A DNA stretch of 39,905 nucleotides from a bacterium (lineage in GTDB: Bacteria > Krumholzibacteriota > Krumholzibacteriia > LZORAL124-64-63). The notes below the pieces were generated by a model, which ran no database searches, was not told the origin of the DNA, and worked only from the letters and a program-made list of their open reading frames with translations. Below are positions 3,901 through 30,154 of this stretch, piece after piece. Position 1 is the stretch's first letter, and the number at the start of each line of letters is the position of its first letter. The stretch lies in assembly GCA_031441465.1 (NCBI GenBank), contig JANOEP010000048.1:1-39905 (forward strand), given 5' to 3'. The position numbers and the translations under genes are program-made.

Positions 3901-4636
3901 CGGGAGCGACGGCGGCGGCGGCCGGCTTCGCGGCCGCGGCGCCCGCCCCGACGGTGACCACGGAATTCTGTCCGCCGAAGCCGTCCTCGGCCGACTCGGC
4001 GGCGGCGGGATCCGCGAGCCAGTTCCCGTCGACGACGAACTTGTACATGTAGCGGCCCGGGGCCAGCGCCAGCGCCTTGGTGTGGACGCCGTCGCCGTCG
4101 GGATCCTCCATGCGGTCGGAGGTCGGGTTCCAGCCGTTGAACTCGCCCGCGAGGAAGCAGGCGGCGCCCTTGCCCGCGTTGTGGGAGAACAGGGTCGCGC
4201 CCGCCGGCGCTGCCGTCGGCGCCACGGAGACGGCCACCGCCGCCTTCGTGACCACCGCGCCGGCCGGCGCCTCGCCGCCACCCGCGGTCAGTTTGGCGGT
4301 CCCGGCCGGCACGACCACGACCGAGTTCTGCCCGCCGTAGCCGTCGTCCTTGCCCACGGGGTTGGCCGGGTCCTGACGCCAGGCGCCGTCGACCACGAAC
4401 TTGTACTCGTAGGTCCCCTCGTCCAGGGGCACGACGACGGCCCACACGCCGCCGCCGGTGTCCTTCAGGGCCAGATCGAAGGCCTTCCAACCGTTGAAGC
4501 TGCCGGCCAGGGTGACCTCCTTGGCGCCGGGGGCGCGGTGGACGAAGGTCACGTCGGCGGCGGGCAGCGAACCGGCCGCCAGGACGATGCCGATCAGCAG
4601 GACAATGAGCGACGACAGCACTGGACGATGGCGCAT
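926..4636 (-). CDS. Secreted multidomain GH13 alpha-glucan hydrolase (neopullulanase/cyclomaltodextrinase/amylopullulanase-like) with five N-terminal CBM48-like modules (about 1236 aa)
   Basis: Signal-peptide-like MRHRPVLSSLIVLLIGIVLAAG; five LAGxFNxW...YKFVVDGxW...DGFGGxNS modules; GH13 regions DMAFNH, GFRLDVP, GEIW, DSHD; TPDWAKDGVIYQIFADRF and WYGDEIGM. Start moved to ATG 4636, which has a GGGAG RBS. Confidence 0.9.
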   Translation of the reverse strand: MRHRPVLSSLIVLLIGIVLAAGSLPAADVTFVHRAPGAKEVTLAGSFNGWKAFDLALKDTGGGVWAVVVPLDEGTYEYKFVVDGAWRQDPANPVGKDDGYGGQNSVVVVPAGTAKLTAGGGEAPAGAVVTKAAVAVSVAPTAAPAGATLFSHNAGKGAACFLAGEFNGWNPTSDRMEDPDGDGVHTKALALAPGRYMYKFVVDGNWLADPAAAESAEDGFGGQNSVVTVGAGAAAAKPAAAAVAPAAPAVGAGGKARFAFDAGGEVGGCFLAGEFNGWNPTGQGMTDPDGDGVYTTELALEPGRYLYKFVVDGNWKQDPANPESVDDGFGGKNSVITVGAGGAAVAPAPAVTPALAVTPAPAPAAPAAGGAPVEVTFTYTPVISGVQNVFLAGSFNGWSDSALRLTDPENDGTYSVVVPLAPGNHQYKYVVDGNWQQDPGNAAVESDGFGGNNSLVAVKAGAAPLKAAETAAARAATGTRTVPFKYAAGKSAKDVFLAGTFNDWNDSKQRLADADGDGVWETSLLLQPGSYQYKFVVDGQWKQDPSNPEGRDDGFGGQNSVLEVDDSFSAVAIARGDGKVYTDDLEPIFDYSTCNPLTPTEIELTARAHLNDVEGVELSYRVDGGDWRTAPMTAAERDPAYQYYRARVTLPGADSVLEYAVRYADGAAQAWLGAAGPSPERPAAAFRYTRAEHPPFLTPDWAKDGVIYQIFADRFRNGDPANDPDFSEAWYQGVNKLPAAGTTNGEYFHLVDDWYDVAGLVRSPYRTDGKPDYYSFYGGDIAGVREKLDYLQDLGVTVIYFNPLNQAMSNHKYDPVDYNTVDPHFADEPGFKAFVQDAHARGIRIVVDMAFNHTGNWHFAFRDAVEKGKDSQYWNWYEFKRWPLPASRDFTAADYYDCWWGFGLHPNLNWDLSRPNSAENAVSDRAQAQVNQPLVDYVLSVAQYWLGDLDIDGFRLDVPNEVPFWFWEEFNAACKRVKPDSWLVGEIWGNAGSWIGPHCFDATMNYKYFRDPVMEFFGQGRIDAATFDQRLSPGRFVYPPQSVQTMMNLIDSHDTVRYLTTSKDVRRQMLAAMFAMTYVGMPHIWYGDEIGMEGDKDPDCRRPFDWRYENDPRKAKLRDYYGTITRFRRDHQMLARGEFATLAAEGPLYAFARRLGTKGAVVLLNNGAQPVTLTLTAAQLGAALPVGGSTVYKVVAGPDWFPSVEGGTLTSGRTLDLGQGDVTVTLPGMSGAVLAN
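2945..4555 (-). repeat. Five tandem intragenic repeats of about 80 aa (CBM48/AMPK-beta glycogen-binding-like) separated by Ala/Pro-rich linkers
   Basis: Recurring DNA such as gaccacgaacttgtac, ccgccgaagccgtc and ccgttgaa, and recurring protein motifs; boundaries approximate. Confidence 0.85.
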
Positions 4637-4719
4637 GATGATCTCCCGGTTGGCGGCGCAGGCGCGCGACGGGGGTCTCCCCCGCCTGGCGATCACGCCG
4701 GAAATGGTCCAAGACATGG

Positions 4720-4805
4720 AGAGTAACACGCGCTGCAGCGGCGTCAAGGGGGCCCGTCGGCCCGGTCGGAGGCGGCTGGGATCCCATCGGTATTTGTGTT
4801 ATCAT
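4720..4805. promoter_or_regulatory. Divergent promoter region for the two GH13 genes
   Basis: Minus strand: TTGACG (4747-4742), 16 nt spacer, TACTCT (4725-4720) with an extended-10 TG. Plus strand: TGtTATCAT (4797-4805). Palindrome TGGGATCCCA at 4777-4786 lies between them. Confidence 0.45.
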
Positions 4806-4838
4806 TAGATGAACTTCGACCCACCCGACGGGAGTCCC

Positions 4839-6719
4839 ATGAACGCGCTGCGGTCCCTGCTGATTTCGTCCGCCTTGCTCGCGACGGCTGCCCTGATGCA
4901 CGGCTGCACGGCCGATCGTCCCGTGGCCCCGGCAGGCGCCGAGGAGGCTGCCACGATCACGACCGCCGCGATGGTCCAGGTCCAACCCGACAGCTTTGTT
5001 CTGCGCGTCTACGCCGCCGATTCGGTCCACCTCGCCGGCGCCTTCAACAGCTGGGCCACCCAGAACCCGGCCTACGCCTTCGTCCCCGACGGCGACGGCC
5101 GCACCTGGCGCTACGGCACCGACCTGCCGGCGGGCGTCCAGGCCTACAAGTTCGTCCTGCGCAGGGGCGGCGTGGTCACCTGGCTGACCGATCCCATGGC
5201 CGCCGAAGTCCAGAGCGGCGGCGATCCCGCACAGGCCAACGCCCTTTACGGGCGGACCCTGCCGTCGATCCGCGACCTGCCGGCGCCGGTCGACCGCACC
5301 AAGCTCGTCATCTACGAGATCGCACCGAACGACTTTTCCGCCGCCGGCTCCTTCTCCGGGATCATCAGCGGCCTGGACACGGGCGCGAACCTGGTCGACC
5401 TGGGCGTCAACGCGATCGAACTGATGCCCGTCAACGCCCCCTCCTACAACGGCTGGGGCTACGACCCGGTGCTGTACGCCGCGCCCAACCCCGCCTACGG
5501 CTCGCCCTACTTCTTCGCCCTGCTGGTGGATCGCTGCCACGAGCGAGGCATGGCCGTCATCCTGGACGTCGTGCTGAACCACCAGGCCGGCGGCGGCGTG
5601 CTGCGCCAGCTGGACACCTTCGCCGGCAGCTACCACTTCACCACGACCGAGTCGAACCCCTGGGGCATGGTCGAGCTGAACTGGAGCGATCCCGCCCTGA
5701 AGGCCCACGTCCGCGACGCGATGCTGCACTGGGTCGACACCTACAAGGTGGACGGCTTCCGCTTCGACTACGTGGCCGGCGAGGGCTGGGCCACCTGGGA
5801 GTACCTGCGCGACGAGCTGCGCGCCGCGCGCCCGGACCTGCTGCTGATCGGCGAGGACTTCCGCTACCCCAACGAGGGCAACGCCGTCACCCACGGCTAC
5901 GACGCCCAGTGGGGCGGCAACCACACCGACGGCTGGGGCGGCGGCGGCAACAATTTCCTGCAGGTGATGACGACCAACCTGACGCAGAACGGCTTCGCCT
6001 GGCGCGGCTCGACCGCGACCAGCCTAGGCTGCTGGAGCTTCGGCTGCCGCAACATGTGGGCCACGGCCAACGTGATCGGCGCCAACAGCCAGTACAACGG
6101 CACCAACGGCGACGGCTTCAGCGACGTGAAGTCCCTCGAGACGCACGACGAGAACCGCATCGCCTGGGCCGTGGACGCCTACGGCTCGGCCGACGCGCAG
6201 GCGGTCGGCGGCCGCCAGAAGTCGGAGTTGGGCGCCTTCGCCCTGCTGACCAGCGTCGGGATCCCGATGCTCTACAACGGCCAGGAGATCGGCTGCGACG
6301 AGTTCCGCCCGAGCGACCCGACCACCTTCAAGATCGACTGGGCCGGCGGCGACCAGGACCTGCGCGACGTCTACCGCAACCTGATCCGGCTGCGGCGCGA
6401 CGAGGCCGCCCTGGCGTCGGAGCGTACCTGGTTCACCTGGCGCGCCGCCGACGCCGACCACGTCGACCGCACACTCTGCTACTGGCGCGGCGGGGCCGTG
6501 TCGTCGCAGGCCGAGATCGTCGTGGCCTTGAACTTCGACCACAACGCCCACACCTGGCCGGTGGCCTTCCCCGCGAACGGGACCTGGCACCGGTACCATC
6601 CTGAGAACGGGGCCTGGGAGGCGGTCGAGATCACGGGGAACCAGCTCGTCATCGCGCAGCCGGCCTCTTCGGGCGCACTCTGGCGCAAGGCCGACGGGAC
6701 CACCGGCGTACCAGACTGA
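4839..6719 (+). CDS. Putative lipoprotein: CBM48-like module + GH13 catalytic domain (trehalohydrolase/branching-enzyme-like alpha-amylase family, about 626 aa)
   Basis: Hydrophobic signal ending LMHG-C (lipobox-like); VHLAGAFNSW...YKF module; IYE, WGYDP, DVVLNH, DGFRFD, IGED, THDE, GIPMLYNGQEIG; GGGAG RBS before ATG 4839. Confidence 0.85.
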   Translation: MNALRSLLISSALLATAALMHGCTADRPVAPAGAEEAATITTAAMVQVQPDSFVLRVYAADSVHLAGAFNSWATQNPAYAFVPDGDGRTWRYGTDLPAGVQAYKFVLRRGGVVTWLTDPMAAEVQSGGDPAQANALYGRTLPSIRDLPAPVDRTKLVIYEIAPNDFSAAGSFSGIISGLDTGANLVDLGVNAIELMPVNAPSYNGWGYDPVLYAAPNPAYGSPYFFALLVDRCHERGMAVILDVVLNHQAGGGVLRQLDTFAGSYHFTTTESNPWGMVELNWSDPALKAHVRDAMLHWVDTYKVDGFRFDYVAGEGWATWEYLRDELRAARPDLLLIGEDFRYPNEGNAVTHGYDAQWGGNHTDGWGGGGNNFLQVMTTNLTQNGFAWRGSTATSLGCWSFGCRNMWATANVIGANSQYNGTNGDGFSDVKSLETHDENRIAWAVDAYGSADAQAVGGRQKSELGAFALLTSVGIPMLYNGQEIGCDEFRPSDPTTFKIDWAGGDQDLRDVYRNLIRLRRDEAALASERTWFTWRAADADHVDRTLCYWRGGAVSSQAEIVVALNFDHNAHTWPVAFPANGTWHRYHPENGAWEAVEITGNQLVIAQPASSGALWRKADGTTGVPD

Positions 6720-6736
6720 AAGGGATTCCGCTCTTC

Positions 6737-6769
6737 GGGCGGTACGACCCCGGCGGGGCCGTACCGCTC
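6737..6769 (+). terminator. GC-rich hairpin downstream of the GH13 lipoprotein gene
   Basis: GGGCGGTACGACCCC / GGGGCCGTACCGCTC, 15-bp stem with one mismatch and one G-U pair; no U-tract. Confidence 0.45.
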
Positions 6770-6895
6770 TGCATGTGTGTCCGACATACTCGTCACGAGG
6801 CCTCATCGCGAACCCGGCCTGATCGAAACGTTGGCCGCTGCCGCATCCGAGATGTGCGTCGTCCGGAATCATTTTATCATTGCGAGAATTATCGG

Positions 6896-6947
6896 TTGAT
6901 TTGGGCCCATCAGATGGAATAGTATGCGTTTGTTAATATATTAACGT
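6896..6947 (+). promoter_or_regulatory. Putative sigma70 promoter and Rex-like operator of the hdr/mvh operon
   Basis: TTGATT (6896-6901), 18 nt spacer, TAGTAT (6920-6925); TTGTTAATATATTAACGT (6930-6947) contains the perfect palindrome GTTAATATATTAAC; AT-rich island in a GC-rich genome. Confidence 0.6.
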
Positions 6948-6971
6948 CTCTCTGTGCGAGAGGGGGACTCC

Positions 6972-8792
6972 ATGGAATGTGATCCCCGCACCGCGGTCTA
7001 CCTGTGCCAGCGCGGAACCGGGCCGTCCGTGACCCTCGACCGGGCCGAAATCGTCCGCTACGCGTCCGGACTTCCCGGCGTCGTCCACGTCCGGGACCAC
7101 GGACTGCAGCCGAAGCTCGACCCCGCACTAGTGGCGGTAGAATTGCGCGCCCTGCGCATCGGTCGCATCGTCATCGCCGGCGACTCACCCGGGTACTTCA
7201 AGCCGGCCTTCACCTGCGCCCTGGCCGAGGCGGGTGGCGATCCCGACGAGGTCCACCTCGCTTCCTTCCGCGAACACGGTGCCGGCTGGGGCGACGCGAC
7301 CGAGCGTGCGAAAGCCGTCCTCGCCTGCGCTGTGTTCGCCGTGCCCTACGGATTGGCGGCCTTGCCCGAGACGACCCGGGTCCATCCGGACACCCTGGTG
7401 ATCGGCGGCGGCGTGGCGGGCATCCAGGTGGCGCTAGAAATCGCCGAGGCGGGCAAGAAGGTCTACCTCGTCGAGAAGTTGGGCACGATCGGCGGCCACA
7501 TGGCGATGTTCGACAAGACCTTCCCCACCCTGGACTGCGCGGCGTGCATCCTGACGCCGAAGATGGTCGCCGTCAGCCAGCACGAACAGATCGAATTGAT
7601 GACCTGCGCGGACGTCGTAGCCATGTCGGGCACACCAGGTGACTACCGGGTCAGCATCCGGAAGCGGGCGCGCCTGGTGGACGCCGACGCGTGCGTGGCC
7701 TGCCACGCCTGCACGGAGGTGTGCCCGGTCAAGGTCCCGAGCGAGTTCGACAACGGCATCACAACACGCAGGGCGATCTACATGCCGTTCCCACAGGCCG
7801 TCCCCAACGCCTACCTGATCGACGGGGACGCCTGCAGCTATGTCCAGAGCGGCGGGCAGAAATGCGGAGCCTGCCTGAAGAAATGTGCGAAGGAGTGCAT
7901 CCACTTCGACATGCCTGACGAGACGGTGGAGATCGAGGTCGGCAACGTGGTCGTCGCCACGGGCTTCGACGTCTTCGACGCGCGTCGGATCGAACGCTAC
8001 GGTTACGGGGCCCTGCCGAACGTGCTCACCGCACTCGAATTCGAACGGCTCACCAACGCGTCCGGCCCGACAGGCGGCGCGATCGTGATGAAGACCGCGC
8101 GGCTCAACAAGCGCACCGGCCAGGAGGAGTGGGCGTTCGACAGCGACGGCCCGCGTCCGCGCCGGATCGCGATCATCCACTGCGTCGGCTCCCGGGACCA
8201 CAACTACAACCCTTACTGCTCTCGTGTCTGTTGCATGTACTCGCTCAAGTTCGCCCACCTGGTGAAGGAGAAACTGCCCGACGCGAGCTGCTTCGAGTTC
8301 TACATCGACATGCGCGCGTTCGGGAAGGGCTACGAGCAGTTCTTCGAGCGCGTCAAGGACGAAGGCGTATTCATCGTGCGCGGGCGTTCCGCCAAGGTCG
8401 CCATGCACGGCGACCAGATGTTCATCAAGGGCGAGGACATCCTCCACAACCGGGTGCGCGAATACCCCGTGGACATGGTGCTGCTGTCAGTCGGCCTGGA
8501 GCCGGCGGCCGACGCCGGCGCGCTGGCGGGCGTGCTCGGCATCGGGCGCGGGACGGACGGCTTCTTCAGCGAGCACGACTACAACATCGATCCCACCGGC
8601 ACCGAGCGCGGCGGCGTCTACGTGGCGGGCGTCTGCCAGGGGCCCAAGGACATCCCGGACACCGTGGCCCAGGCGTCGGCGGTGGCGGCCCGCGTACTGC
8701 GCGCCATTCTCAGCGGGCACGGCCGGAGCCATCATGCGACAGTCTCCCTCGAGACGATCGAGAACCGCGCGGCGGCGCTCGCGAACAGATAG
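6972..8792 (+). CDS. hdrA: HdrA-family FAD/Fe-S protein, paralog 1 (degenerate N-terminal Fe-S domain, inserted 2x[4Fe-4S] domain, no C-terminal ferredoxin domain; 606 aa)
   Basis: GGGVAG FAD motif, DKTFPTLDCAACILTPKM, CVACHACTEVCP / C...CGACLKKC, LEFERL, HCVGSRD...YCSRVCCMYSLK, YIDMRAFGKGYE, GVCQGPKDIPDTVAQA. Confidence 0.9.
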   Translation: MECDPRTAVYLCQRGTGPSVTLDRAEIVRYASGLPGVVHVRDHGLQPKLDPALVAVELRALRIGRIVIAGDSPGYFKPAFTCALAEAGGDPDEVHLASFREHGAGWGDATERAKAVLACAVFAVPYGLAALPETTRVHPDTLVIGGGVAGIQVALEIAEAGKKVYLVEKLGTIGGHMAMFDKTFPTLDCAACILTPKMVAVSQHEQIELMTCADVVAMSGTPGDYRVSIRKRARLVDADACVACHACTEVCPVKVPSEFDNGITTRRAIYMPFPQAVPNAYLIDGDACSYVQSGGQKCGACLKKCAKECIHFDMPDETVEIEVGNVVVATGFDVFDARRIERYGYGALPNVLTALEFERLTNASGPTGGAIVMKTARLNKRTGQEEWAFDSDGPRPRRIAIIHCVGSRDHNYNPYCSRVCCMYSLKFAHLVKEKLPDASCFEFYIDMRAFGKGYEQFFERVKDEGVFIVRGRSAKVAMHGDQMFIKGEDILHNRVREYPVDMVLLSVGLEPAADAGALAGVLGIGRGTDGFFSEHDYNIDPTGTERGGVYVAGVCQGPKDIPDTVAQASAVAARVLRAILSGHGRSHHATVSLETIENRAAALANR

Positions 8793-8810
8793 CAGAGGAG
8801 GACAACCACG

Positions 8811-9956
8811 ATGGCGGTTCTGTCGAACCCGCGGTTGGCGGGAGAACTCGAGCAGTACGGCGCCGACGACGTGTCCAAGTGCTACCACTGCGGCAACTGC
8901 AGCGCGACCTGCCCCTTCTCGCGGGAACCCTTCCTTTTCCCTCGCATGTCGATGCGCTACCTCCAGATGGGCCTCGAGGAGAAGCTGCGGGGCACTCTCG
9001 AACCCTGGCTTTGCTACTACTGCGGCGAGTGTTCGCAGGAGTGTCCGCGCGAAGCCGAACCCGGCGAGACGATGATGGCCATGCGCCGCTGGCTGACCGC
9101 CCAATACGATTTCACGGGCCTCTCCCGGCTGTTCTATCGATCCTGGCGGCTCGAGCTGGGCGCGCTGCTCGCGGTCGCGCTCCTGACGGGAATCGGCTTC
9201 GCGCTATGGGGACGGCACAACGGCAGCCTGACGATCTACGACGGCCCGGGCGCCTTCCTCCCGAGCGAGAAGGTGCACGTCTTCGACTGGGTGATGGGCG
9301 GCGTCCTCGGCGGGCTATTGCTGGTCAACTGCCTGAGGATGTGGTGGTACACGTTGGGACGCGAGAAGGGACTCCGGGTGCCCCTGGCCGCCTACCTGCG
9401 TCACGCCTGGCTAATGCCGTTGCATTTCATGACCCAGAAGCGTTACCGCGAATGCGAACGGAAGGCGCCCTGGGCCTTGCACCTCGCGCTGATGCTCAGC
9501 TACCTGACGATGCTCGTCCTGATCATGTTCTTCCTGCACGGGATGCAGTCCGGTCCCGGGATAAGCTGGCGTCATCATGGCCTCGGTTACCTGGCGTCGG
9601 CGGGTCTGCTGTTCACAACCGGGTGGGCTCTGCGGGGCCGGTGGCAGCGGCACGAAATCCACTGGCGGCATTCCCACGAGACGGATTGGCTCTTCCTGGT
9701 ACTGATCCTGTACGTCGCGACGACCGGGATCGTGCAGCACGCGCTGCACCGCCTCGGCCAGCCGCAGGCGGCCAATCTGGTGTACCTCGCGCACATGATG
9801 GGGGTGGTGCCCATGCTGGTGCTGGAGGTCCCCTTCAGCAAGTGGTCCCACCTGGCCTACCGGCCGCTGGCCATGTACTTCTCTACGCTGCAGGCTGAGG
9901 CGATCCTCGCCCGGGACGACGCGCGCGAACCCGCACCGGACGCCCTGACGGCCTGA
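8811..9956 (+). CDS. QmoC-like membrane protein: HdrC-like 2x[4Fe-4S] domain fused to a multi-TM cytochrome-b-like domain (381 aa)
   Basis: CYHCGNCSATCP and WLCYYCGECSQECPR; about 6 hydrophobic helices with His residues (WALHL, RHHG, YLAHM, PFSKWSHLAYRP); GAGGAGG RBS. Confidence 0.8.
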   Translation: MAVLSNPRLAGELEQYGADDVSKCYHCGNCSATCPFSREPFLFPRMSMRYLQMGLEEKLRGTLEPWLCYYCGECSQECPREAEPGETMMAMRRWLTAQYDFTGLSRLFYRSWRLELGALLAVALLTGIGFALWGRHNGSLTIYDGPGAFLPSEKVHVFDWVMGGVLGGLLLVNCLRMWWYTLGREKGLRVPLAAYLRHAWLMPLHFMTQKRYRECERKAPWALHLALMLSYLTMLVLIMFFLHGMQSGPGISWRHHGLGYLASAGLLFTTGWALRGRWQRHEIHWRHSHETDWLFLVLILYVATTGIVQHALHRLGQPQAANLVYLAHMMGVVPMLVLEVPFSKWSHLAYRPLAMYFSTLQAEAILARDDAREPAPDALTA

Positions 9957-9966
9957 GGAGGTGACG

Positions 9967-11682
9967 ATGAGCGAATGCAGGATCGGCGTCTTCATCTGCA
10001 ACTGCGGGTCGAACATCGCCAGGGTCGTGGACTGCGAAGAGGTCGCCGGCTGGATCCGGGACGAGCCGGGGGTCGCCGTCACCCGCACCTACAAGTACAT
10101 GTGCTCGAACCCGGGCCAGGAAATGATCGTCCAGGACATCGGGGCGCATCAGCTGGACCGTGTCGTGGTCTCCGCCTGCAGTCCGCGCATGCACGAGCCG
10201 ACGTTTCGCAAGACGCTGCAGAAGGGCGGCCTCAATCCCTACTACCTGGAGATGGCCAACATCCGGGAACAGTGCAGCTGGGTGCACGACGACCCGCGCG
10301 GGGCCACCGACAAGGCGACCGCGCTCACCCGGGCCGCCGTGCGCCGGGTCGCCCACCACGAACCGCTGGAGAAGCGCTTCGAGAACATGAACCCGGCCAC
10401 GCTCGTTCTGGGAGGGGGCCTCGCCGGCCTGACCGCCGCCCTCGAATTGGCCGGTGCGGGACAGCCCGTGTTCCTTGTCGAGAGCGAGGAGCGGCTCGGC
10501 GGCAATGTCGCGCGGGTGGACCTGACGGCGCCGTACCTCGACTCCGCACGCGACATGCTGGCGGACCGAGTCGCCCGCGTGCAGGAGAATCCGCTGATCG
10601 AAGTCCTCCTGGTGAGCGAATTGGTTGAGCTCAGTGGATTCGTGGGCAATTTCACGGCCCGCGTCCGTTCGACCGGCGAAGACGGCCCGACGCGCGTCCT
10701 GCCTGTTGGGAGCATCATCGTGTGCACCGGCTACCAGCCTTTCGACGCCGGACGCATCGCCGCCTACGGTTACGGCAGGCTGCCGGACGTGGTCACCTCT
10801 TTCGAGTTCGAACGGATGCTGCGCGAGGGCCGGATCCGCACCAGCACGGGCCGCGTCCCGCGCTACGTCGCCATCGTCCACTGCGTCGGCAGCCGCAGCG
10901 AACGGCACCACACGTACTGTTCGCGGGTGTGCTGCATGACCGCCCTGAAATACGGCCACGAGATCAAGTCGGCGATCCCGGATGCCTTCGTCTACGACCT
11001 GTACATCGACATGCACGCCTTCGGCAAGGGATGCGAGGACTTCTACCTCCGCAGTGCGGAGATGAAGACCATCTTCCTCATGTACAAGAAGGGCACTACT
11101 CCCGAGATCATACCGGCCGGCTCTCGTTACGACAGCGAGATGCTGGTCACCGCTCACGACCTGCTGTGCGGCGAAGACATCGAGATCCCGGCCGACCTGG
11201 TGGTGCTGATGGTCGGCATGGAGGCGCGGCGGGACGCCGGGGCGGTCGCCCACCTAGTCAACATCAGCCAGGACAAGGACGGCTGGTTCATCGAGAGTCA
11301 CCCGAAGCTCGACCCCGTCGCGACCACCACCGACGGCGTGTACATCGCCGGCGCCTGCCAGGCGCCCAAGGATATCCCCGACTCCGTGGCCCAGGCCCGC
11401 GCGGCCGCCGCACGCATCCTCCAGAAGATCGCGCGCGGCCGCATCGAAGTCGATGCCGTCTATGCCGAGGTCGACCCCGATCTCTGCTCCGGCTGCCGCA
11501 TCTGCAACGAACTGTGCCCCTACGTCGCCATCGATTTCGACGCGGACAAGAGGCGCAGTCGCGTCATCAGCGCTCAATGCAAGGCCTGCGGCGCCTGCGT
11601 GGCCGCCTGCCCTAGCGGAGCCATCACGGGCCGGCACTTCACCGACGAGCAGATCTATGCCCAGATCGAGGGGGTGCTCTGA
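9967..11682 (+). CDS. hdrA: HdrA-family FAD/Fe-S protein, paralog 2 (intact N-terminal Fe-S domain, no inserted ferredoxin domain, C-terminal 2x[4Fe-4S]; QmoB-like without fused MvhD; 571 aa)
   Basis: IGVFICNCGSNI, YMCS, SACSPRMHE, ANIREQCSWVH, GGGLAG, FEFERM, HCVGSR...YCSRVCCMTALK, CSGCRICNELCP, CKACGACVAACP; GGAGGTG RBS before ATG 9967. Confidence 0.9.
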   Translation: MSECRIGVFICNCGSNIARVVDCEEVAGWIRDEPGVAVTRTYKYMCSNPGQEMIVQDIGAHQLDRVVVSACSPRMHEPTFRKTLQKGGLNPYYLEMANIREQCSWVHDDPRGATDKATALTRAAVRRVAHHEPLEKRFENMNPATLVLGGGLAGLTAALELAGAGQPVFLVESEERLGGNVARVDLTAPYLDSARDMLADRVARVQENPLIEVLLVSELVELSGFVGNFTARVRSTGEDGPTRVLPVGSIIVCTGYQPFDAGRIAAYGYGRLPDVVTSFEFERMLREGRIRTSTGRVPRYVAIVHCVGSRSERHHTYCSRVCCMTALKYGHEIKSAIPDAFVYDLYIDMHAFGKGCEDFYLRSAEMKTIFLMYKKGTTPEIIPAGSRYDSEMLVTAHDLLCGEDIEIPADLVVLMVGMEARRDAGAVAHLVNISQDKDGWFIESHPKLDPVATTTDGVYIAGACQAPKDIPDSVAQARAAAARILQKIARGRIEVDAVYAEVDPDLCSGCRICNELCPYVAIDFDADKRRSRVISAQCKACGACVAACPSGAITGRHFTDEQIYAQIEGVL

Positions 11683-12116
11683 TGGCCTTCGAACCCAGGA
11701 TCGTGGGGTTCCTGTGCAATTGGTGTTCGTACACGGGCGCCGACCTCGCCGGCACCAGCCGCATCAAGTATGCGCCCAACGTGCGCGTGGTCCGGGTGAT
11801 GTGCTCCGCCCGCGTGGATCCCACCTTCGTCATCGAGGCCCTGCGGATGGGGGCGGACGGCGTACTCATCTGCGGCTGCCACCCCGGAGACTGCCACTAC
11901 GCCGAGGGCAACTACAAGACCAAGCGCCGCTACCCGCTGCTGAAGCGGCTGCTCGCGGGGTACGGCATCGAACCGGCGCGGGTCCGCCTGGAGTGGGTCA
12001 GCGCCAGCGAGGGGCAGCGCTTCGCGGACATCGTCAACGAGATGACCGAGCAGGTCCGGGCCCTGGGACCCTGCCGCGTTCGGCAGGTCCTGGAAGCCGA
12101 CCTGTCGGAAAGGTGA
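11682..12116 (+). CDS. mvhD: MvhD/FlpD [2Fe-2S] subunit (144 aa)
   Basis: FEPRIVGFLCNWCSYTGADLAG, VMCSARVDP, GCHPGDCHY, WVSASEG; TGATG overlap with the upstream gene. Confidence 0.95.
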   Translation: MAFEPRIVGFLCNWCSYTGADLAGTSRIKYAPNVRVVRVMCSARVDPTFVIEALRMGADGVLICGCHPGDCHYAEGNYKTKRRYPLLKRLLAGYGIEPARVRLEWVSASEGQRFADIVNEMTEQVRALGPCRVRQVLEADLSER

Positions 12117-12119
12117 GCC

Positions 12120-13082
12120 ATGGCCGACCGCAAGCTCCAGATCGCGCTCTACTGGGGGGCCGCCTGCGGCGGCTGCGATGTCGCCGTCCTCGACACGAAC
12201 GAATTCATCCTGGAACTCGCGGCGGTCGCGGACATCCGCTTCTGGCCGATCGCCGTCGACGGCAAGTACGCCGACGTTGAAGCGATGGCCGACGGTGAGT
12301 TGGATCTGGTCATCTTCAGCGGGGCGGTCCGCAACAGCGAGAACGAGCGCCTGGCGAAGCTGCTGCGGCGCAAGACCAGTCTGCTGGTGGCCTTCGGCTC
12401 CTGCGCGCACATGGGCGGCATCCCCGGCCTGGCGAACTCGGTGACGCGCGAGGAGATCCTGGCGTGCGCCTACCTGGACAATCCTACGATCGAGCCCGGC
12501 AACCGCACCGTGCCACGGACGACGACACCCGCCGGGAACGGCAACGATCTGGAACTCCCCCAGTTCTACAAGCGCGTCTACCGCCTCAGCGACATCGTCG
12601 AGGTCGACTACACCGTGCCGGGGTGTCCGCCCGCCCCCGCGCAGGTGAAAGCCGTCCTGCAGGCGATCGCAGGCGGGAGCCTGCCGCCCCGGGGCTCCGT
12701 CGTGGGCGCGTCGGAGCGGACGGTCTGTGACGACTGCCGGCGCACAAAGGAGGAGAAGCGGATCAAGCGGTTCCACCGCCCGTGGCAGATCATCCAGGAT
12801 CCGGAACGCTGCCTGCTCGAGCAGGGGATCCTATGCGCCGGCTCCGTGACGCGTTCCGGGTGCGGCGTGAGATGCCCGGACAGCAACATGCCCTGCCGCG
12901 GCTGCTACGGCCCGGCGCCGAACGTGCGCGATCAGGGCGCCAAGTTCGTGAGCGCGGTCGCCTCGATCGTCGACAGCAAGGATCCAGCGGAGATCGACCG
13001 CATCTTGGACGGCGTGCCGGACATCCTGGGCTACGCCTACCGTTTCGGTCTGCCCGGCTCGAAACTGCAGAGGAGCCTGTGA
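12120..13082 (+). CDS. mvhG: F420-non-reducing (group 3c) [NiFe]-hydrogenase small subunit (320 aa)
   Basis: YWGAACGGCD, AFGSCAHMGGIPGL, PGCPP, VCDDC, CLLEQGILCAG, CGVRCP...PCRGCYGP. Confidence 0.92.
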   Translation: MADRKLQIALYWGAACGGCDVAVLDTNEFILELAAVADIRFWPIAVDGKYADVEAMADGELDLVIFSGAVRNSENERLAKLLRRKTSLLVAFGSCAHMGGIPGLANSVTREEILACAYLDNPTIEPGNRTVPRTTTPAGNGNDLELPQFYKRVYRLSDIVEVDYTVPGCPPAPAQVKAVLQAIAGGSLPPRGSVVGASERTVCDDCRRTKEEKRIKRFHRPWQIIQDPERCLLEQGILCAGSVTRSGCGVRCPDSNMPCRGCYGPAPNVRDQGAKFVSAVASIVDSKDPAEIDRILDGVPDILGYAYRFGLPGSKLQRSL

Positions 13083-14548
13083 TGTCCCGAACGATCCTGA
13101 TCGATCCGATCACCAGGCTGGAAGGCCACGGCAAGATCCACATCTTCCTGGACGACGAGGGCGCGGTCACCGACAGCTACTTCCAGATCCCGGAACTGCG
13201 GGGTTTCGAGCGTTTCGTGGTCGGCCGGCCCATCGAGGAACTGCCCCGCATCGTCACGCGGATCTGCGGGGTCTGCCCGGCGAGCCATCACCTAGCCAGC
13301 GCCAAGGCGGTCGACGGCTGCTTCGGCGGCGAGGTACCGCCGCTCGCGCACAAGCTGCGCGAAATGTACTACCAGGCCCACTTCATCCACAGCCACATCG
13401 CGCATTTCTACGCCCTGGCGGCGCCGGACTTCGTCTGCGGACCGGATTCCGACCCGGCGCTGCGCAACATCCTGGGCGTCGTCCAGAAGGTCGGGCTGGA
13501 CGTGGGCGGCGCCGTGATCAAGGCACGGGCCATGGCGCAGGAGATCCAGAAGACCATCGGCGGCCGCTCGACCCACCTCGTCTGGTGCCTGCCCGGCGGC
13601 GTTTCCAAGGGTCTCACGCCGGCCGAGGTCGCGGGCATCCGCCCACTGGCCGGCGAGCTTTACGACTTCGCGCAGTTCTCGCTCCAGGTCTTCCGTGACA
13701 TCGTCCTGGGCAACCCGGCCTACGTCGACCTGATCGTGAACGGCCCCTACACGCTCGACGTGCACAACATGGGCCTGGTCGACGGGGACAACGCGCCCAA
13801 TTTCTACGACGGCCTGGTGAGAGTCGTCGACTACGAGGGCCGTGAGATCTGCCGATACGCACCGGCGGACTACCACCTCCACGTCGCCGAGCACGTCGAG
13901 TCCTGGTCCTACCTCAAGTTCCCGTACCTGAAGCAGCGGGGCTGGCGGGGCTTCACCGAGGGGTTGGATTCGAGCCTGTACTGCGCCACCCCCCTTGCTC
14001 GATTGAATGTGGCGGACCGCATGGCAACACCCAGGGCCCAGGAAGCGTATGAGGAGCTGTTCACGACCCTGGGCGGCCATCCCTGCCGGGCGCTCCTGGC
14101 CAACCACTGGGCCCGGCTCGTGGAGATGATCCAGAACGCCGAGGTCCTCCTGCGCTACGCGGACGACCCGGAGATCGCCGGCCCCGATTACCGCGTCGTT
14201 CCCCGGAGCATCACCGGCGAAGGCGTGGGCATCGTCGAGGCGATGCGCGGCACCCTCACCCACCACTACACCTGCGACGAGAACGGGATCTGCACCAGCG
14301 CCAACCTCATCGTGGGCACGACGAACAACAACGCGCCGATCCACATGGTCACCAACAAGGTCGCCAAAGCGATGATCAAGCCTGGGCGCGAGCCCGAACC
14401 GGGAATGCTGAACATGATCGAAATGGCGTTCCGTGCGTTCGACCCCTGTTACAGTTGCGCCACCCACTCCCTGCCCGGCCAGATGCCCCTCGAGGCGATC
14501 GTGCACCGGGGCGGCGAGATCTGGCGGGTGCTGCGGAAGAACTGCTGA
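13082..14548 (+). CDS. mvhA: Group 3c [NiFe]-hydrogenase large subunit (488 aa)
   Basis: IDPITRLEGHGKI, L1 RICGVCPASHH, HFYALAAPDFV, EAMRGTLTHHY, L2 RAFDPCYSCATH followed by a cleavable C-terminal extension; TGATG overlap with mvhG. Confidence 0.95.
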   Translation: MSRTILIDPITRLEGHGKIHIFLDDEGAVTDSYFQIPELRGFERFVVGRPIEELPRIVTRICGVCPASHHLASAKAVDGCFGGEVPPLAHKLREMYYQAHFIHSHIAHFYALAAPDFVCGPDSDPALRNILGVVQKVGLDVGGAVIKARAMAQEIQKTIGGRSTHLVWCLPGGVSKGLTPAEVAGIRPLAGELYDFAQFSLQVFRDIVLGNPAYVDLIVNGPYTLDVHNMGLVDGDNAPNFYDGLVRVVDYEGREICRYAPADYHLHVAEHVESWSYLKFPYLKQRGWRGFTEGLDSSLYCATPLARLNVADRMATPRAQEAYEELFTTLGGHPCRALLANHWARLVEMIQNAEVLLRYADDPEIAGPDYRVVPRSITGEGVGIVEAMRGTLTHHYTCDENGICTSANLIVGTTNNNAPIHMVTNKVAKAMIKPGREPEPGMLNMIEMAFRAFDPCYSCATHSLPGQMPLEAIVHRGGEIWRVLRKNC

Positions 14549-14551
14549 CCG

Positions 14552-15028
14552 GTGCACACCAAGATCGTGGGCATGGGCAACCCGATCATCACCGACGACG
14601 CCATCGGCGTGCGCTTGGTGCGCGGCCTGCACGAGCGGCTGGGCGAGATCGAGGGGGTTATCTGGATCGAGGAGTGCTCGGTCGGGGGACTAAACCTGCT
14701 GGACGTGGTCGGCGACTGCGACCGCCTGATCGTGGTCGACTCGCTGAAGACCCGCGGGGCCGGGCCGGGCGACTGGCACCGCTTCACGGCAGTTGATCTG
14801 CGCCCGACGCTGAACCTCTCCAGCGTCCACGACGCGAACTTCGCGACGGCGCTGGCGCTCGGGCGCCGGCTGGGCATTCCCTTGCCGCGGGACGAAGAGA
14901 TCCACATCTTCGGTGTCGAAATCATCGACAACACCAGCTTCGGCGAGCAGATGACGCCGGAACTCGAACAGCGCTTTCCCGCCTTGCTGAACGAAATCCG
15001 CGCCCAAGTGCGCAATCTGCTGGATTGA
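14552..15028 (+). CDS. Hydrogenase maturation endopeptidase (HycI/HyaD family, 158 aa)
   Basis: GMGNPIITDDAIG, LIVVDS, SSVHD motifs; directly after mvhA. Confidence 0.92.
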   Translation: MHTKIVGMGNPIITDDAIGVRLVRGLHERLGEIEGVIWIEECSVGGLNLLDVVGDCDRLIVVDSLKTRGAGPGDWHRFTAVDLRPTLNLSSVHDANFATALALGRRLGIPLPRDEEIHIFGVEIIDNTSFGEQMTPELEQRFPALLNEIRAQVRNLLD

Positions 15029-15091
15029 CGTCCCGCCCGGACACCACGTCCCGGCACCCACGGCCGACTTCGGTTCAACCGGTCCCGCCGC

Positions 15092-15985
15092 TCAGCACAG
15101 AGGCAGGCTCTTCGCCGGGAGGCCTCCGGCGCCGAGCAAGGCCGCGGCATGCCCCCCCATCGTGACGAACGCCCCCTGCCTCAGCACGCCCTCCAGCTTG
15201 GCCACCGTCGAGTCCTGCCCGCCCTGGCTAAGCAGACGCTTCACCGGCGACTGGCCGATGCGGCCGGGCCGCCAGTCATCCAGTTCCCAGGGATGCAGGT
15301 AGGTGACGATGGACTGGCCCTGACGGCGGGCAAGCGAGCGCAGTGCGCGGGAGGCGGGCACCGGCAGCAGCCGCAGGTAGGCGCCGCCGGCGAAGCCGAT
15401 GTTCACACCCAGGACACGCGCGGTGGTCATGGGCATCACCAGCAGCGGCTCTCCCCCGTTGGTGCCTGACGGCTGCAGCAGGAATGGTCGCCGCGGCGAC
15501 GCGGGCTGACCGTAGTGCGGGTGGTGGACGGGGAACAGGGAGCAGTCGTAGGTGAAGCCCTCCTCGCGCAGCACGTGCAGGTAGTCGTGCACCGGCGGCG
15601 TGATGGTGAAGCTCGGGGCGCGGTAGCCGTCGACGCGGTCGATGCCCGCGGCGGCCAGCGCCGCGCGCGCTTGTCGCAGATCGGCGCGGAACTCCGCCGC
15701 CGTGAGCCGGTGGACGACCGGGTGGGCATAGGAATGGCAGGCGATCTCGTGGCCGGCGTCGGCGATGCGGCGCACCAGCTCGGGGTGGCGCTCGGCGGTC
15801 CAGCCCAGGACGAAGAAGGTCCCGGTCACGCGGTGCCTCGCCAGCAGGTCGAGGCAGCGCTCGGTGTTGCCGACGACGCGGCTCTCGCGCCCCTGCCAGG
15901 TGTCCGGCGGCGCCTGGTCGAGGTAGTTGTGGCCGTGGAACCACTCCTCGACGTCGATGGTCAGGATGTCGGGTGTCGCGTTCAC
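15092..15985 (-). CDS. Polysaccharide deacetylase (CE4/NodB fold, DUF3473/PEP-CTERM-associated type, about 297 aa)
   Basis: LTIDVEEWFH, TFFVLGW, HEIACHSYAH, GYRAPSF, YLHPWELD; GTG start at 15985 with a GGAGGGG RBS. Confidence 0.85.
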   Translation of the reverse strand: MNATPDILTIDVEEWFHGHNYLDQAPPDTWQGRESRVVGNTERCLDLLARHRVTGTFFVLGWTAERHPELVRRIADAGHEIACHSYAHPVVHRLTAAEFRADLRQARAALAAAGIDRVDGYRAPSFTITPPVHDYLHVLREEGFTYDCSLFPVHHPHYGQPASPRRPFLLQPSGTNGGEPLLVMPMTTARVLGVNIGFAGGAYLRLLPVPASRALRSLARRQGQSIVTYLHPWELDDWRPGRIGQSPVKRLLSQGGQDSTVAKLEGVLRQGAFVTMGGHAAALLGAGGLPAKSLPLC

Positions 15986-23659: not shown

Positions 23660-23733
23660 GCCCTGCTCCCCGACGGCACACGTCCGGCATCTTGCCGGTC
23701 GTGACGCACACCGGGCACGGGGGAAGTCGCTTG

Positions 23734-25452: not shown

Positions 25453-25476
25453 CCCGGGCCGGGAGGGATACGGGAG

Positions 25477-26721
25477 ATGGCGAATTTCACCTACGTGGCG
25501 AAGGACCGCAGCGGCGTCGAGCTGACGGGCTTCCTGTCCGGCGCCAGCGACGACGAGATCATCCAGCGGCTGCACCAGCAGGGGCTGGCCGTCATGCACG
25601 TCGCCGAGGACCGGCGGGGCCAGGCCAAGGCGGCCTGGAAGGCCCAGGCGGCCTCCTGGAACCTCCGCCGGGCGTCGACGCGCGACCTGGCGCTGTTCAG
25701 CCGTCAGCTGGCCACGGTGCTGGAGTCGGGCATCCCCCTGGTCAAGGGCCTGCGGGGCCTGTCCGCCGACTCGGGCCGCGGCCCGGTGGCGAAGGCGGTG
25801 GACGATCTGGCCACGCGCGTGGAGCGCGGCGAGAGCATCTCGGACGCCATGGCGGCCCACCCGGCCGTCTTCAACTCGATGTACCTGAGCATGATCCGCG
25901 CAGGCGAGCGCGCCGGCACCCTGGACAAGATCGTCGTCGAACTCTCCAACTACCTGGAAAAGGTCGACGACATCAAGGGCAAGGTGAAGGCGGCGATGAC
26001 CTACCCGGTCTTCATCCTGACCTTCACGATCCTGGCCACCCTGTTCCTGATCCTGAAGATCGTGCCGACCTTCTCGGACATCTACAAGGAACTCGGCCAG
26101 GAACTGCCTGCGCTGACCCGCGTCGTGCTGAGCATCTCGGACGCCGTGCGCGCTCACGTCGTGGTCGTGCTGGGCGGCATGGCGGCCCTGGTCGTCGCCA
26201 CGTTCGCCGCCCTGCGCACCCGCCGCGGCCTGCGCACCTGGCACGCCATGATGCTGCGGATGCCCATCTTCGGCTCCATCGTCACCAAGAGCGTGATGAG
26301 CCGCTTCGCCCGCACCTTCGGCATCCTGATCGGCAGCGGACTGCCCATCCTCGAGAGCCTCGACCTGGTCAAGGGGGCCGCCGACAACCTGGTGGTCGCC
26401 GACGCCATCGACGAGGTCAAGGCCAAGGTCGCCGCCGGCCAGGGCGTGACCGAGTCCTTCCGCGCCACCGGCGCCTTCCCGGAGATGATCCTGCAGCTGA
26501 TGGCCACCGGCGAGGAGGCCGGCGAGCTGGACACGATGCTGAACAAGTCCTCGGACTTCTACGACCGGCAGGTCGAGGCGTCCGTGCACGGACTGTCGTC
26601 GCTCATCGAGCCGATCATGATCGTGGTCGTGGGCGGCATCATCGGCTTCATCGTGCTGAGCATGTTCCTGCCCATCTTCGGGATGGGCGACGCGATGATC
26701 AAGGGGTCGGCGGCCATGTAG
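25477..26721 (+). CDS. pilC: PilC/GspF inner-membrane platform protein (414 aa)
   Basis: FSRQLATVLESGIPL, AGERAGTL, AMTYP, TGEEAGELDTML, LIEPIMIV, MFLPIF. Confidence 0.93.
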   Translation: MANFTYVAKDRSGVELTGFLSGASDDEIIQRLHQQGLAVMHVAEDRRGQAKAAWKAQAASWNLRRASTRDLALFSRQLATVLESGIPLVKGLRGLSADSGRGPVAKAVDDLATRVERGESISDAMAAHPAVFNSMYLSMIRAGERAGTLDKIVVELSNYLEKVDDIKGKVKAAMTYPVFILTFTILATLFLILKIVPTFSDIYKELGQELPALTRVVLSISDAVRAHVVVVLGGMAALVVATFAALRTRRGLRTWHAMMLRMPIFGSIVTKSVMSRFARTFGILIGSGLPILESLDLVKGAADNLVVADAIDEVKAKVAAGQGVTESFRATGAFPEMILQLMATGEEAGELDTMLNKSSDFYDRQVEASVHGLSSLIEPIMIVVVGGIIGFIVLSMFLPIFGMGDAMIKGSAAM

Positions 26722-26825
26722 GCGCCGATTCGCATTTGGAGGTGGCACTCAATCACCCGGACTGGCTGCCACCTGGGACAAGGACGTCCGGGGGAATCGT
26801 CTGCGCAAGCAGAGGAGGGACCAAG

Positions 26826-27260: not shown

Positions 27261-27359
27261 CCGCTGCACACTTCGGGTGGCACGCGTTCGTCCGGACTGG
27301 CGGCCACCGGGTTCAGTCGTCCGGACGGGCACAATCGTAACAACGCAGGAGGTAGGATA

Positions 27360-27794: not shown

Positions 27795-27809
27795 CCCGCT
27801 CAGTCGGCT

Positions 27810-27842: not shown

Positions 27843-27869
27843 CCACACACCGGCAGGAAGTTCAGTACG

Positions 27870-28292: not shown

Positions 28293-28296
28293 AGCC

Positions 28297-30140: not shown

Positions 30141-30154
30141 CAAGGAGGACGGTA

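Follow-up and report, generated by a model that had tools for sequence, protein, structure and literature searches.

To what does a bacterial group 3c hydrogenase pass its electrons? Such enzymes are widely reported in bacterial metagenome-assembled genomes (MAGs), and they are routinely drawn there as soluble MvhADG-HdrABC complexes that reduce a heterodisulfide which these bacteria do not make. The question is raised again by an operon of seven genes at positions 6972–15028 of the Krumholzibacteriota contig JANOEP010000048.1 (assembly GCA_031441465.1). This contig, C48, was analysed over its entire 39,905 bp, here called the window, and belongs to a genome of 3.49 Mb in 74 contigs that is estimated to be 96.8% complete. 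From the homologies and gene order set out below, we lean towards the reading that the operon encodes one membrane-anchored MvhA-MvhG-MvhD-HdrA2-HdrA1-QmoC complex, which would carry out a reversible bifurcation of H2 to menaquinone and ferredoxin. If the common bacterial form is indeed anchored in the membrane through a QmoC-like cytochrome, the quinone pool would serve as its high-potential acceptor. Models of H2 oxidation, of the supply of ferredoxin and of how energy is conserved would then have to change for the Acidobacteriota, Thermoleophilia, Krumholzibacteriota, Eisenbacteria, Myxococcota and others, while the orphan MvhD domain of QmoB would gain a concrete analogue and quinone-dependent, flavin-based bifurcation a tractable test case.

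A gene cluster of this kind is already in print for two archaea. The first-pass annotation of the window had left room for a novel module, and that part of it must be withdrawn, as both the gene set and the hypothesis of H2 oxidation with menaquinone and ferredoxin have been published for two Archaeoglobi, Ca. Methanoglobus nevadensis and Ca. M. hypatiae, in which an "Mvh-Qmo-Hdr" cluster was reported (bioRxiv 10.1101/2022.12.01.518715; PMC10945360). By its published description, that cluster encodes a cytochrome b in which QmoC and HdrC are fused, along with MvhAGD and two homologues of HdrA; AprAB and Dsr are absent, and H2 is proposed to be bifurcated to menaquinone and ferredoxin. The cluster is described as highly transcribed in Ca. 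M. hypatiae, at 995–2431 reads per kilobase per million (RPKM; PMC10945360). The hosts differ, being thermophilic methanogenic archaea there and here a bacterium of freshwater sediment with aerobic respiratory genes, and the two clusters are likened by gene content only. No description of the operon from a bacterium was found in the open-access literature searched; the supplements to PMC10504309, PMC10945360 and the bioRxiv preprint may show such clusters. To this the window contributes a member from a bacterium, the extent to which such operons are distributed, and details of ligands and domains. The operon is intact and its reading well supported at the level of sequence; it is widespread and mobile, with a non-canonical histidine set and interchangeable donor modules.

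The Operon and Its Hydrogenase

The tight packing of the operon seen in the first-pass annotation was borne out. The seven genes run head to tail on the plus strand in the order hdrA1 (6972–8792), the QmoC-like gene (8811–9956), hdrA2 (9961–11682), mvhD (11682–12116), mvhG (12120–13082), mvhA (13082–14548) and the gene of a maturation protease (14552–15028), with intergenic spacings of 18, 4, −1, 3, −1 and 3 bases, so that no gap is longer than 18 bases. The start of mvhD shares one base with the stop of hdrA2. The first gene starts at ATG 6972, with the ribosome-binding site GAGGGGG (6959–6965) 6–7 nt upstream, the longest open reading frame (ORF) over it opening at GTG 6954; for hdrA2 there is an alternative start at ATG 9967, and the true start of mvhA is residue 101 of a long ORF that spans 12782–14548.

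The large subunit, MvhA (488 amino acids), was found to carry RICGVC and a C-terminal DPCYSCATH in its translation, in agreement with the N-terminal RxCGxC and C-terminal DPCxxCxxH nickel-iron ligand motifs of a group 3c large subunit. Among NCBIfam families it scores highest with VhuA (365 bits, under the equivalog cut-off of 800), and its best chains in the PDB are subunit A of F420-non-reducing hydrogenases (9sw2_F, E 8.4e-113; 5odc_F, E 1.9e-108). The [NiFe]-hydrogenase small subunit, MvhG, is likewise closest to VhuG (199 bits, below the cut-off of 450) and in the PDB to the MvhG chain 5odc_E (E 7.5e-59), with the next hydrogenase type at E 2.5e-19. MvhD, the [2Fe-2S] connector subunit encoded alongside them, matches Pfam FlpD over the full profile (185 bits, positions 1–123 of 123) and NCBIfam VhuD (130 bits). 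The expected membership of group 3c was thus supported, MvhA and MvhG both being closest to the subunits of F420-non-reducing hydrogenases (MvhA/VhuA and MvhG/VhuG). No twin-arginine signal is visible at the N-terminus of MvhG, so the hydrogenase would face the cytoplasm. The last gene product is a hydrogenase maturation endopeptidase (TIGR00072, 85.7 bits against a cut-off of 47; Pfam HycI), which, to judge from its family, should cleave the C-terminus of MvhA.

Two Complementary HdrA Flavoproteins

The operon encodes a pair of HdrA-type flavoproteins, with flavin adenine dinucleotide (FAD) and iron-sulfur (FeS) motifs. Both match the NCBIfam family HdrA2 (HdrA1 with 550 bits over profile positions 1–567 of 777, HdrA2 with 602 bits), and each covers a different part of the 659-residue HdrA chain of PDB 8rvu_a. 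HdrA1 (E 9.5e-140) aligns with chain residues 8–575 and ends before the C-terminal ferredoxin domain; HdrA2 (E 2.8e-144) aligns in two blocks that skip residues 244–326, where the inserted ferredoxin domain lies, and reaches residue 652. A cysteine-by-cysteine table, with the full-length HdrA of the genome's own contig C9 as the reference, gave the same division of parts. In HdrA1 the N-terminal domain is present with its cluster cysteines lost and one cysteine of the domain retained; the cysteine pair in FPTLDCAAC, the region of M. wolfeii Cys197, and all eight cysteines of the inserted 2x[4Fe-4S] ferredoxin domain are kept, and no C-terminal ferredoxin domain is present. In HdrA2 the N-terminal cluster cysteines are kept, as are all eight in the 2x[4Fe-4S] ferredoxin domain at the C-terminus; Ser/Asp occupy the Cys197-region positions, and the inserted ferredoxin domain is lacking. 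The flavin-proximal CxGSR...CSRVCC cluster and the GxGxxG motif for FAD are retained in each of the two, neither of which has all four domains of the HdrA found in HdrABC. The complementarity was the same in both other pairs that were tabulated (L011 and L036).

The significance of these losses can be read from M. wolfeii, for which the relevant passages of Chadwick et al. 2022 (PMC9012536) describe a path from MvhD through the ferredoxin domain at the C-terminus to the FAD, from where one electron pair leaves via the cluster of the thioredoxin-reductase domain to HdrBC and the other via the N-terminal cluster, for which the partner HdrA supplies Cys197, to the inserted ferredoxin domain and on to ferredoxin. 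In the same source, a like complementarity between Cys197 and the N-terminal domain in tandem or fused HdrA paralogues of anaerobic methanotrophic (ANME) archaea is interpreted as the sign of an obligate heterodimer (PMC9012536). The ANME paralogues differ from the present pair in that HdrA1 keeps its N-terminal domain, from which the cysteines are lost, and in their partners; the word QmoC does not occur in the main text of that paper. By the logic of Chadwick et al. 2022 (PMC9012536), HdrA1 and HdrA2 should, given their complementary parts, form one asymmetric heterodimer, and we infer that such a dimer would have exactly one entry from MvhD, one composite N-terminal cluster and one exit to ferredoxin.

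The same division of domains is found in QmoA and QmoB. In canonical sequences, taken from genomes selected for a QmoC above the NCBIfam cut-off, the inserted domain is present in QmoA and the N- and C-terminal domains are both absent; QmoB has the N-terminal cysteines, the C-terminal ferredoxin domain and a fused MvhD, with the inserted domain absent. From the identical split it might be supposed that HdrA1 is the orthologue of QmoA and HdrA2 that of QmoB, an idea that was rejected by a tree of the flavoproteins and an approximately unbiased (AU) test. In the tree (66 rows, one short fragment having been dropped; quick IQ-TREE run under LG+G4 with only Shimodaira-Hasegawa-like approximate likelihood-ratio (SH-aLRT) support, rooted at the midpoint), QmoA and QmoB formed one clade (SH-aLRT 100) apart from HdrA1 (100), HdrA2 (100) and ordinary HdrA, and the AU test rejected a clade of HdrA1 with QmoA (p 2.4e-5, the group having been named after the tree was seen). 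The first-pass annotation had called for both HdrA proteins to be compared with QmoA and QmoB, and the answer came in two halves: the two are an HdrA-type pair with a Qmo-like domain split, and they are not QmoA and QmoB by descent. In addition, the HdrA1 and HdrA2 subtrees are congruent in topology and cut across phyla, showing that the genes travel together and suggesting that the operon has been transferred in one piece.

The QmoC-Like Membrane Subunit

The gene between the two flavoproteins encodes a protein with two CxxCxxCxxxC motifs and six predicted membrane helices. Residues 1 to about 100 are an HdrC-like 2x[4Fe-4S] domain, as seen by phmmer (E 1.8e-12 to 7bkb_C) and by structural alignment with VIA-align (Z 13.7, root-mean-square deviation (rmsd) 2.0 Å over 100 residues). 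The AlphaFold2 (AF2) model of the protein, which has a predicted local distance difference test score (pLDDT) of 93 and a predicted template modelling score (pTM) of 0.90, has helices at residues 112–137, 152–183, 219–246, 253–279, 290–314 and 318–342, plus a C-terminal helix. For the membrane part, the best VIA-align matches were EtfD of M. smegmatis (225 residues, rmsd 5.4, Z 10.7), NarI (181 residues, rmsd 5.6, Z 8.5) and CybB of E. coli (Z 8.5); each of the three is a di-haem b protein that interacts with quinone. With its match to the NCBIfam model qmoC, its match to HdrC chains of the PDB and the VIA-align result, the protein bears out its first naming as QmoC-like, and its N-terminal domain is of the HdrC type. 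When 77 full-length representatives (of 150 listed) were aligned with 13 canonical QmoC proteins, it was seen that the eight FeS cysteines, C215, H224, H328 and H347 are conserved in both sets, and the best 120 relatives also have fixed histidines at H156 (119/120), H256 (120/120) and H289 (120/120). The protein is therefore described here as a putative di-haem b, quinone-interacting subunit.

The Proposed Electron Path and Its Energetics

In the complex that we favour, the cytoplasmic [NiFe] site of MvhA would split H2, and the electrons would pass through the clusters of MvhG and the [2Fe-2S] cluster of MvhD into the C-terminal ferredoxin domain of HdrA2 and on to a bifurcating FAD of the HdrA1/HdrA2 heterodimer. 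There the high-potential electron would take the flavin-proximal [4Fe-4S] cluster to the HdrC-like domain of QmoC, the b-haems and finally menaquinone. The low-potential electron would cross the composite N-terminal cluster, built from cysteines of HdrA2 and the Cys197-region cysteine of HdrA1, to the inserted ferredoxin domain of HdrA1 and leave on ferredoxin. The net reaction would be 2 H2 + MK + Fd(ox) = MKH2 + Fd(red) + 2 H+ (MK, menaquinone; Fd, ferredoxin), with menaquinone in the role that the heterodisulfide of coenzymes M and B (CoM-S-S-CoB), together with HdrB, holds in methanogens.

The textbook potentials are −414 mV for H+/H2 at 1 bar, rising by 29.6 mV with each tenfold drop in H2, −74 mV for MK and about −450 to −500 mV for Fd. 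Simple arithmetic on these values gives an average of about −262 to −287 mV for the two acceptors, compared with about −296 mV for H+/H2 at 10 Pa and −266 mV at 1 Pa, which places the bifurcation reaction near equilibrium at 1–10 Pa H2. Being near equilibrium at sediment-like H2, the reaction would run forward at higher H2 and possibly backward, from MKH2 and Fd(red) to H2, in H2-poor sediment.

Several lines of evidence support this reading. The whole input path from Mvh to HdrA is present and its genes are packed as for co-translation; the HdrA copies complement each other, the cysteines and histidines of QmoC are conserved, the inputs are exchangeable, the genome offers a fitting context (these last two are taken up below) and the HdrA subtrees are congruent; and the same hypothesis was put forward for the homonymous, highly transcribed archaeal cluster.

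Relation to Known Complexes

The MvhADG-HdrABC complex of hydrogenotrophic methanogens (PDB 5ODC, 8RVU and others) shares with the operon the group 3c-type MvhA, MvhG and MvhD, an HdrA with FAD and the same cluster motifs, and the HdrC fold, which here is the N-terminal domain of the QmoC-like protein. It differs in that the operon has no HdrB, the protein with the CCG domain, and in that HdrC is fused to a six-helix membrane domain. In place of the HdrA homodimer stands a putative heterodimer of half-equipped copies, and the acceptor is presumed to be menaquinone rather than CoM-S-S-CoB.

The type I QmoABC of sulfate reducers and sulfur oxidisers shares two HdrA-like flavoproteins together with an HdrC/cytochrome-b fusion, the domain split between QmoA and QmoB that recurs as HdrA1 and HdrA2+MvhD, three of the four QmoC histidines and all the FeS cysteines. 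In contrast to type I, HdrA1 and HdrA2 lie outside the QmoA/QmoB clade, the gene order is A-C-B and not A-B-C, MvhD is a separate gene, a hydrogenase is attached and no aprBA neighbour is present. The QmoC-like protein itself is also set apart by its Gln at the fourth histidine position and by its score. Scores against the qmoC model were bimodal in 151 genomes of one phylum, with 49 matches of canonical QmoC at 361–525 bits, 14 at 161–213 and then 97, and the protein of the window, at 162 bits, falls in the lower-scoring class.

A "type II" Qmo, closer to HdrA than to the bacterial QmoAB and occurring with or without Dsr/Apr, was described by Neukirchen et al. 2023 (PMC10504309), whose main text leaves its role undefined and does not contain the word Mvh. 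The position of HdrA1 and HdrA2 in our tree matches that description, by which alone membership would be assigned, reference type II sequences not being in the tree. Ramos et al. 2012 proposed that a hydrogenase might act as the partner of Qmo in confurcation.

Distribution and Exchangeable Modules

How far the arrangement extends was seen from the relatives of the QmoC-like protein. Among 8000 candidates scored, 3016 relatives were found at E <= 1e-10, of which the best 120 are 64–100% identical, and a library of 1.84 billion representatives held 2034 proteins at E <= 0.001. A genome scan gave 155 encoding stretches, the best 80 of which were used for the synteny counts. These loci come from MAGs labelled Eisenbacteria, Krumholzibacteriota, Terriglobia, Thermoanaerobaculia, Holophagae, Vicinamibacteria, Aminicenantes, Thermoleophilia, Actinomycetota, Anaeromyxobacteraceae, Polyangiaceae, Geobacteraceae, Sumerlaeota, Latescibacterota, Leptospirales, Bdellovibrionales and others. 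The complete order hdrA1-qmoC-hdrA2-mvhD-mvhG-mvhA was present in 59 of the 80 loci (49 of them with the protease); two more were cut upstream with the remainder present, two had a fragmentary hdrA1 match with the remainder present, 11 met a contig edge before the hydrogenase genes, five had room downstream and no mvhGA, and one (L085) had a qmoA/B/C-like order. The survey of synteny that the first-pass annotation had proposed thus showed the hydrogenase gene order kept in 63 of the 69 loci that could be judged, across phyla, and the arrangement is not a matter of chance. An in-frame stop in the hdrA1 match of L024 was dismissed as an alignment artefact, since it precedes the true start. The pattern within the window's own phylum is sparse: in a sample of 80 further genomes of 90% completeness or more, a close copy is present in only two (73% and 64% identity) and 14 have only a paralogue of 40–46%, and in the window's own family a match was found in one of 27 genomes.

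The loci that have no hydrogenase are instructive for the role of the core. In L069 (2855–6082), mvhD lies upstream of hdrA1-qmoC-hdrA2 together with genes for Flx-like subunits, namely an FeS protein, one of the Fer4_22 type and one with NAD/FAD/2Fe-2S domains, a layout that was also seen by tblastn in L062 and L076. In L074 (10581–14158), a molybdopterin oxidoreductase resembling formate dehydrogenase follows mvhD, and in L020 mvhD is present and mvhGA absent. These Flx-like and molybdopterin partners indicate that the core accepts different electron-input modules, as HdrABC does, and the variants of HdrA1-QmoC-HdrA2 mirror the swappable inputs of Mvh/Fdh/Flx-HdrABC. We venture, as a tentative extension that we hold to be rather doubtful, that HdrA1-QmoC-HdrA2-MvhD may be a general, horizontally mobile bacterial "quinone-linked bifurcase" platform with interchangeable donors (H2, formate, or reduced nicotinamide adenine dinucleotide (phosphate), NAD(P)H) that operates near equilibrium at environmental H2. 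Were this so, ferredoxin could be charged during H2 scavenging, menaquinol electrons could escape as H2 in the reverse direction, and many of the bacterial "group 3c, heterodisulfide-linked" hydrogenases of metagenome surveys would have been mis-assigned. A route by which electrons of menaquinol reach H2 has long been sought in the electron flow of syntrophy and fermentation.

Some loci showed further variation. In L069 a short remnant of a HycI-like protease follows hdrA2. L085 (4381–9128) has a qmoA-like/qmoB-like/qmoC order, in which the QmoA-like copy has no N-terminal domain and the QmoC is 58% identical to that of the window, compared with only 39% for the flavoproteins; members of the QmoC-like subfamily thus occur with more than one kind of flavoprotein pair. 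In L013 (323–5712), L019 (1–4797) and L075 (622–5930) a second, more distant hdrA-mvhD-mvhG-mvhA(-protease) set, of 44–70% identity, stands immediately upstream of the QmoC-type operon and in the same orientation, which argues for a separate hydrogenase in each of the two systems wherever both are complete.

Genome Context

The absence of HdrB that gave the module its first description as "HdrB-less" holds for the operon and the window, in whose proteins no CCG domain was found, and does not extend to the genome, which has five matches to the CCG family PF02754, on C27, C9 and C58, and a full hdrCBA-mvhD cluster on C9. That cluster (C9:77719–83575, minus strand; L090 7719–13575) consists of hdrC, an hdrB whose product has two CCG domains and a full-length hdrA, followed by an mvhD in fusion with a 4Fe-4S dicluster domain (453 amino acids) and a Fer4_22 protein (343 amino acids), and no hydrogenase, formate dehydrogenase or NAD-binding subunit was found beside it. 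The other CCG proteins are a 1115-residue protein on C27 (26251–29598, minus strand; L092 6251–9598), whose C-terminal part bears a 4Fe-4S dicluster and a pair of CCG domains, with some 700 N-terminal residues that have no Pfam match and a length near that of the 1042-residue M. smegmatis EtfD (9ojn_A), which also gave the best structural match to the QmoC membrane domain, and a further one on C58.

The lack of aprAB and dsr genes, first noted for the window, was extended to the genome, in which, at 96.8% completeness, neither aprA nor dsrA was matched; Rnf also gave no match. For menaquinone synthesis, which the first-pass annotation had asked after, no match to the classical MenA (TIGR00751) was found in the genome, and two matches to the futalosine family PF02621 (MqnA/D) were, which indicates menaquinone made by the futalosine route. 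The respiratory genes include two haem-copper oxidases, a bd-type oxidase and two NuoD, and genes for 2-oxoacid:ferredoxin oxidoreductases lie at the end of the window and on C3. Those in the window (38271–39903, minus strand) encode the beta (TPP-binding) and alpha subunits and are cut by the end of the contig. A second hydrogenase, a group 3b-like [NiFe] enzyme, is encoded at C39:55265–59730 (L091 5265–9730) by genes for Fer4_22, FAD/NAD, small and large subunits and a protease, followed by a response regulator and a histidine kinase; HypD lies at C39:66256–67293. The RpoB of the genome is 98% identical to a MAG protein; its named matches, at 78–86% identity, carry the labels Candidatus Krumholzibacteria or Krumholzibacteriia, with a single one, at 78%, labelled Gemmatimonadales. 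Four DNA sequencing runs, and no RNA run, contain the DNA of the window and are labelled freshwater sediment metagenome.

Weighing the Proposal

A number of observations weigh against the bifurcating complex proposed here. The margin by which MvhA is assigned is modest, 381 bits to Mvh/Vhu compared with 354 (7t2r_D) and 321 to other large subunits of group 3. Since the FAD motifs and the flavin-proximal cluster stand in both HdrA copies, it is ambiguous which flavin bifurcates, if either does, and the tree on which their placement rests holds no methanogen HdrA and no reference "type II" Qmo sequences. The score of the QmoC-like protein against NCBIfam qmoC (NF038018) is under the equivalog cut-off of 300. 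The Z scores of 8.5–10.7 for its membrane domain can be reached by helical bundles through arrangement alone, and a Foldseek search of the PDB with the whole model gave no match at E <= 0.001 (the probabilities were 1.00 for HdrC, 0.99 for EtfD and 0.94 for NarI, the last two at E > 0.001). A lack of conserved haem b histidine pairs, which the first-pass annotation had named as a ground for refutation, was not observed, as H224, H328 and H347 are there and conserved; the fourth canonical QmoC histidine (13/13), though, is replaced by a glutamine, Q209, that is invariant in 120/120 close relatives, which makes the ligand set non-canonical, and the three universally conserved histidines have no simple mapping onto the two-helix pattern of NarI. 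One helical turn before this glutamine, four residues earlier, H205 is kept in 119/120 of the same relatives. MvhAG might in addition supply the hdrCBA-mvhD cluster on C9, which is not accompanied by a hydrogenase, so that an HdrBC encoded elsewhere, a refuting case in the first-pass annotation, may be the obligate partner. Finally, assembly, haem binding, quinone and ferredoxin as substrates, bifurcation and its direction are all inferred from homology.

Two alternatives survive best. The first is a plain, non-bifurcating cytoplasmic H2:menaquinone oxidoreductase, in which the HdrA flavins would convert electron pairs to single electrons, no ferredoxin would be reduced and the inserted ferredoxin domain would be a relic or an internal wire. 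By the textbook potentials, the step from H2 to menaquinone is strongly exergonic and needs no coupling; the oxidases and complex I would suit a simple hydrogenotrophic respiration, and the involvement of ferredoxin is argued from sequence. Against it stand the eight cysteines of the inserted domain and the ligands of the composite N-terminal cluster, which are kept here and in the L011 and L036 pairs, the retention of whole HdrA1 and HdrA2 genes at 61–78% identity across phyla, and the cost of two flavoproteins and a [2Fe-2S] connector compared with a three-subunit uptake hydrogenase anchored by cytochrome b, and we regard it as unlikely.

The second keeps the same complex and reverses its physiology, menaquinol and reduced ferredoxin being confurcated to H2 as the electron sink of a fermenting or syntrophic sediment bacterium. 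Since Rnf was not found although 2-oxoacid:ferredoxin oxidoreductases are encoded, a sink for ferredoxin would be needed, and the reaction turns below about 1–10 Pa H2 on the textbook potentials; the source runs carry a sediment label, and confurcation at Qmo was proposed by Ramos et al. 2012. The reaction is, however, uphill except at very low H2, the group 3b hydrogenase of the genome could vent reductant, and the aerobic respiratory genes fit H2 uptake as well; we give this direction a small chance of being the physiological one.

There is only a slim chance, in our estimation, that the operon encodes a Qmo-type complex from which electrons go to a third protein, soluble and bound at HdrA1 in the way that AprAB docks on QmoA, with hydrogenase and menaquinol as co-donors. 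HdrA1 and HdrA2+MvhD repeat the domain split of QmoA and QmoB exactly, a contact between QmoA and AprAB was shown and a hydrogenase co-donor postulated by Ramos et al. 2012, and close QmoC relatives do occur in clusters with other partners, such as that of L085 with its 58% identity. Against this, aprA and dsrA were not found in this nearly complete genome, the 80 loci show no eighth gene that is conserved behind the operon, and the flanking genes are amylases and a polysaccharide deacetylase. Least probable of all is that MvhAGD serves the canonical HdrABC of C9 and that HdrA1-QmoC-HdrA2 is a separate Qmo-like unit merely sharing the operon, for although the C9 cluster has no catalytic subunit of a hydrogenase or dehydrogenase of its own and an hdrCB cluster lies within 8 kb at 7/80 loci (never inside the operon), the start of mvhD overlaps the stop of hdrA2, the six genes stay together in 63/69 judgeable loci, no hdrB-like gene is found within 8 kb at 73/80, a second, separate hdrA-mvhD-mvhG-mvhA set stands beside the operon in L013, L019 and L075, and the C9 cluster has its own MvhD.

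Leader and Neighbouring Genes

The operon of the proposed complex is preceded by an AT-rich leader (6870–6971, plus strand), presumably holding the promoter and 5′ untranslated region (UTR), within a window whose G+C is about 66–74% (genome about 68%). In addition to the ribosome-binding site, it contains a perfect 12-bp palindrome, TTAATATATTAA, at 6932–6943, 29 nt 5′ of the hdrA1 start, which was not seen upstream of hdrA1 in the 12 relatives looked at. A scan of 6600–15300 for the sigma-70 consensus gave no promoter-like site, a terminator scan gave two terminator-like sites, both on the minus strand (shuffled sequences give 3.6), and Rfam gave no match in the whole window at its gathering thresholds, so that no known riboswitch or leader was found in it.

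Two alpha-amylase genes lie upstream of the operon and a polysaccharide deacetylase downstream on the opposite strand, and given these flanks the unit is self-contained. One of the amylases (926–4747, minus strand) is a protein of 1273 amino acids with five glycogen-binding repeats of the AMPK1_CBM/CBM48 type as well as X25 and CBM53 modules; the second is at 4809–6719. Further along, positions 23692–36118 of the window hold a type IV pilus/type II secretion gene set whose members include a GspE/PilB-like ATPase, a PilC-like protein, a prepilin, a PilM-like protein, a secretin, a second ATPase and a prepilin peptidase.

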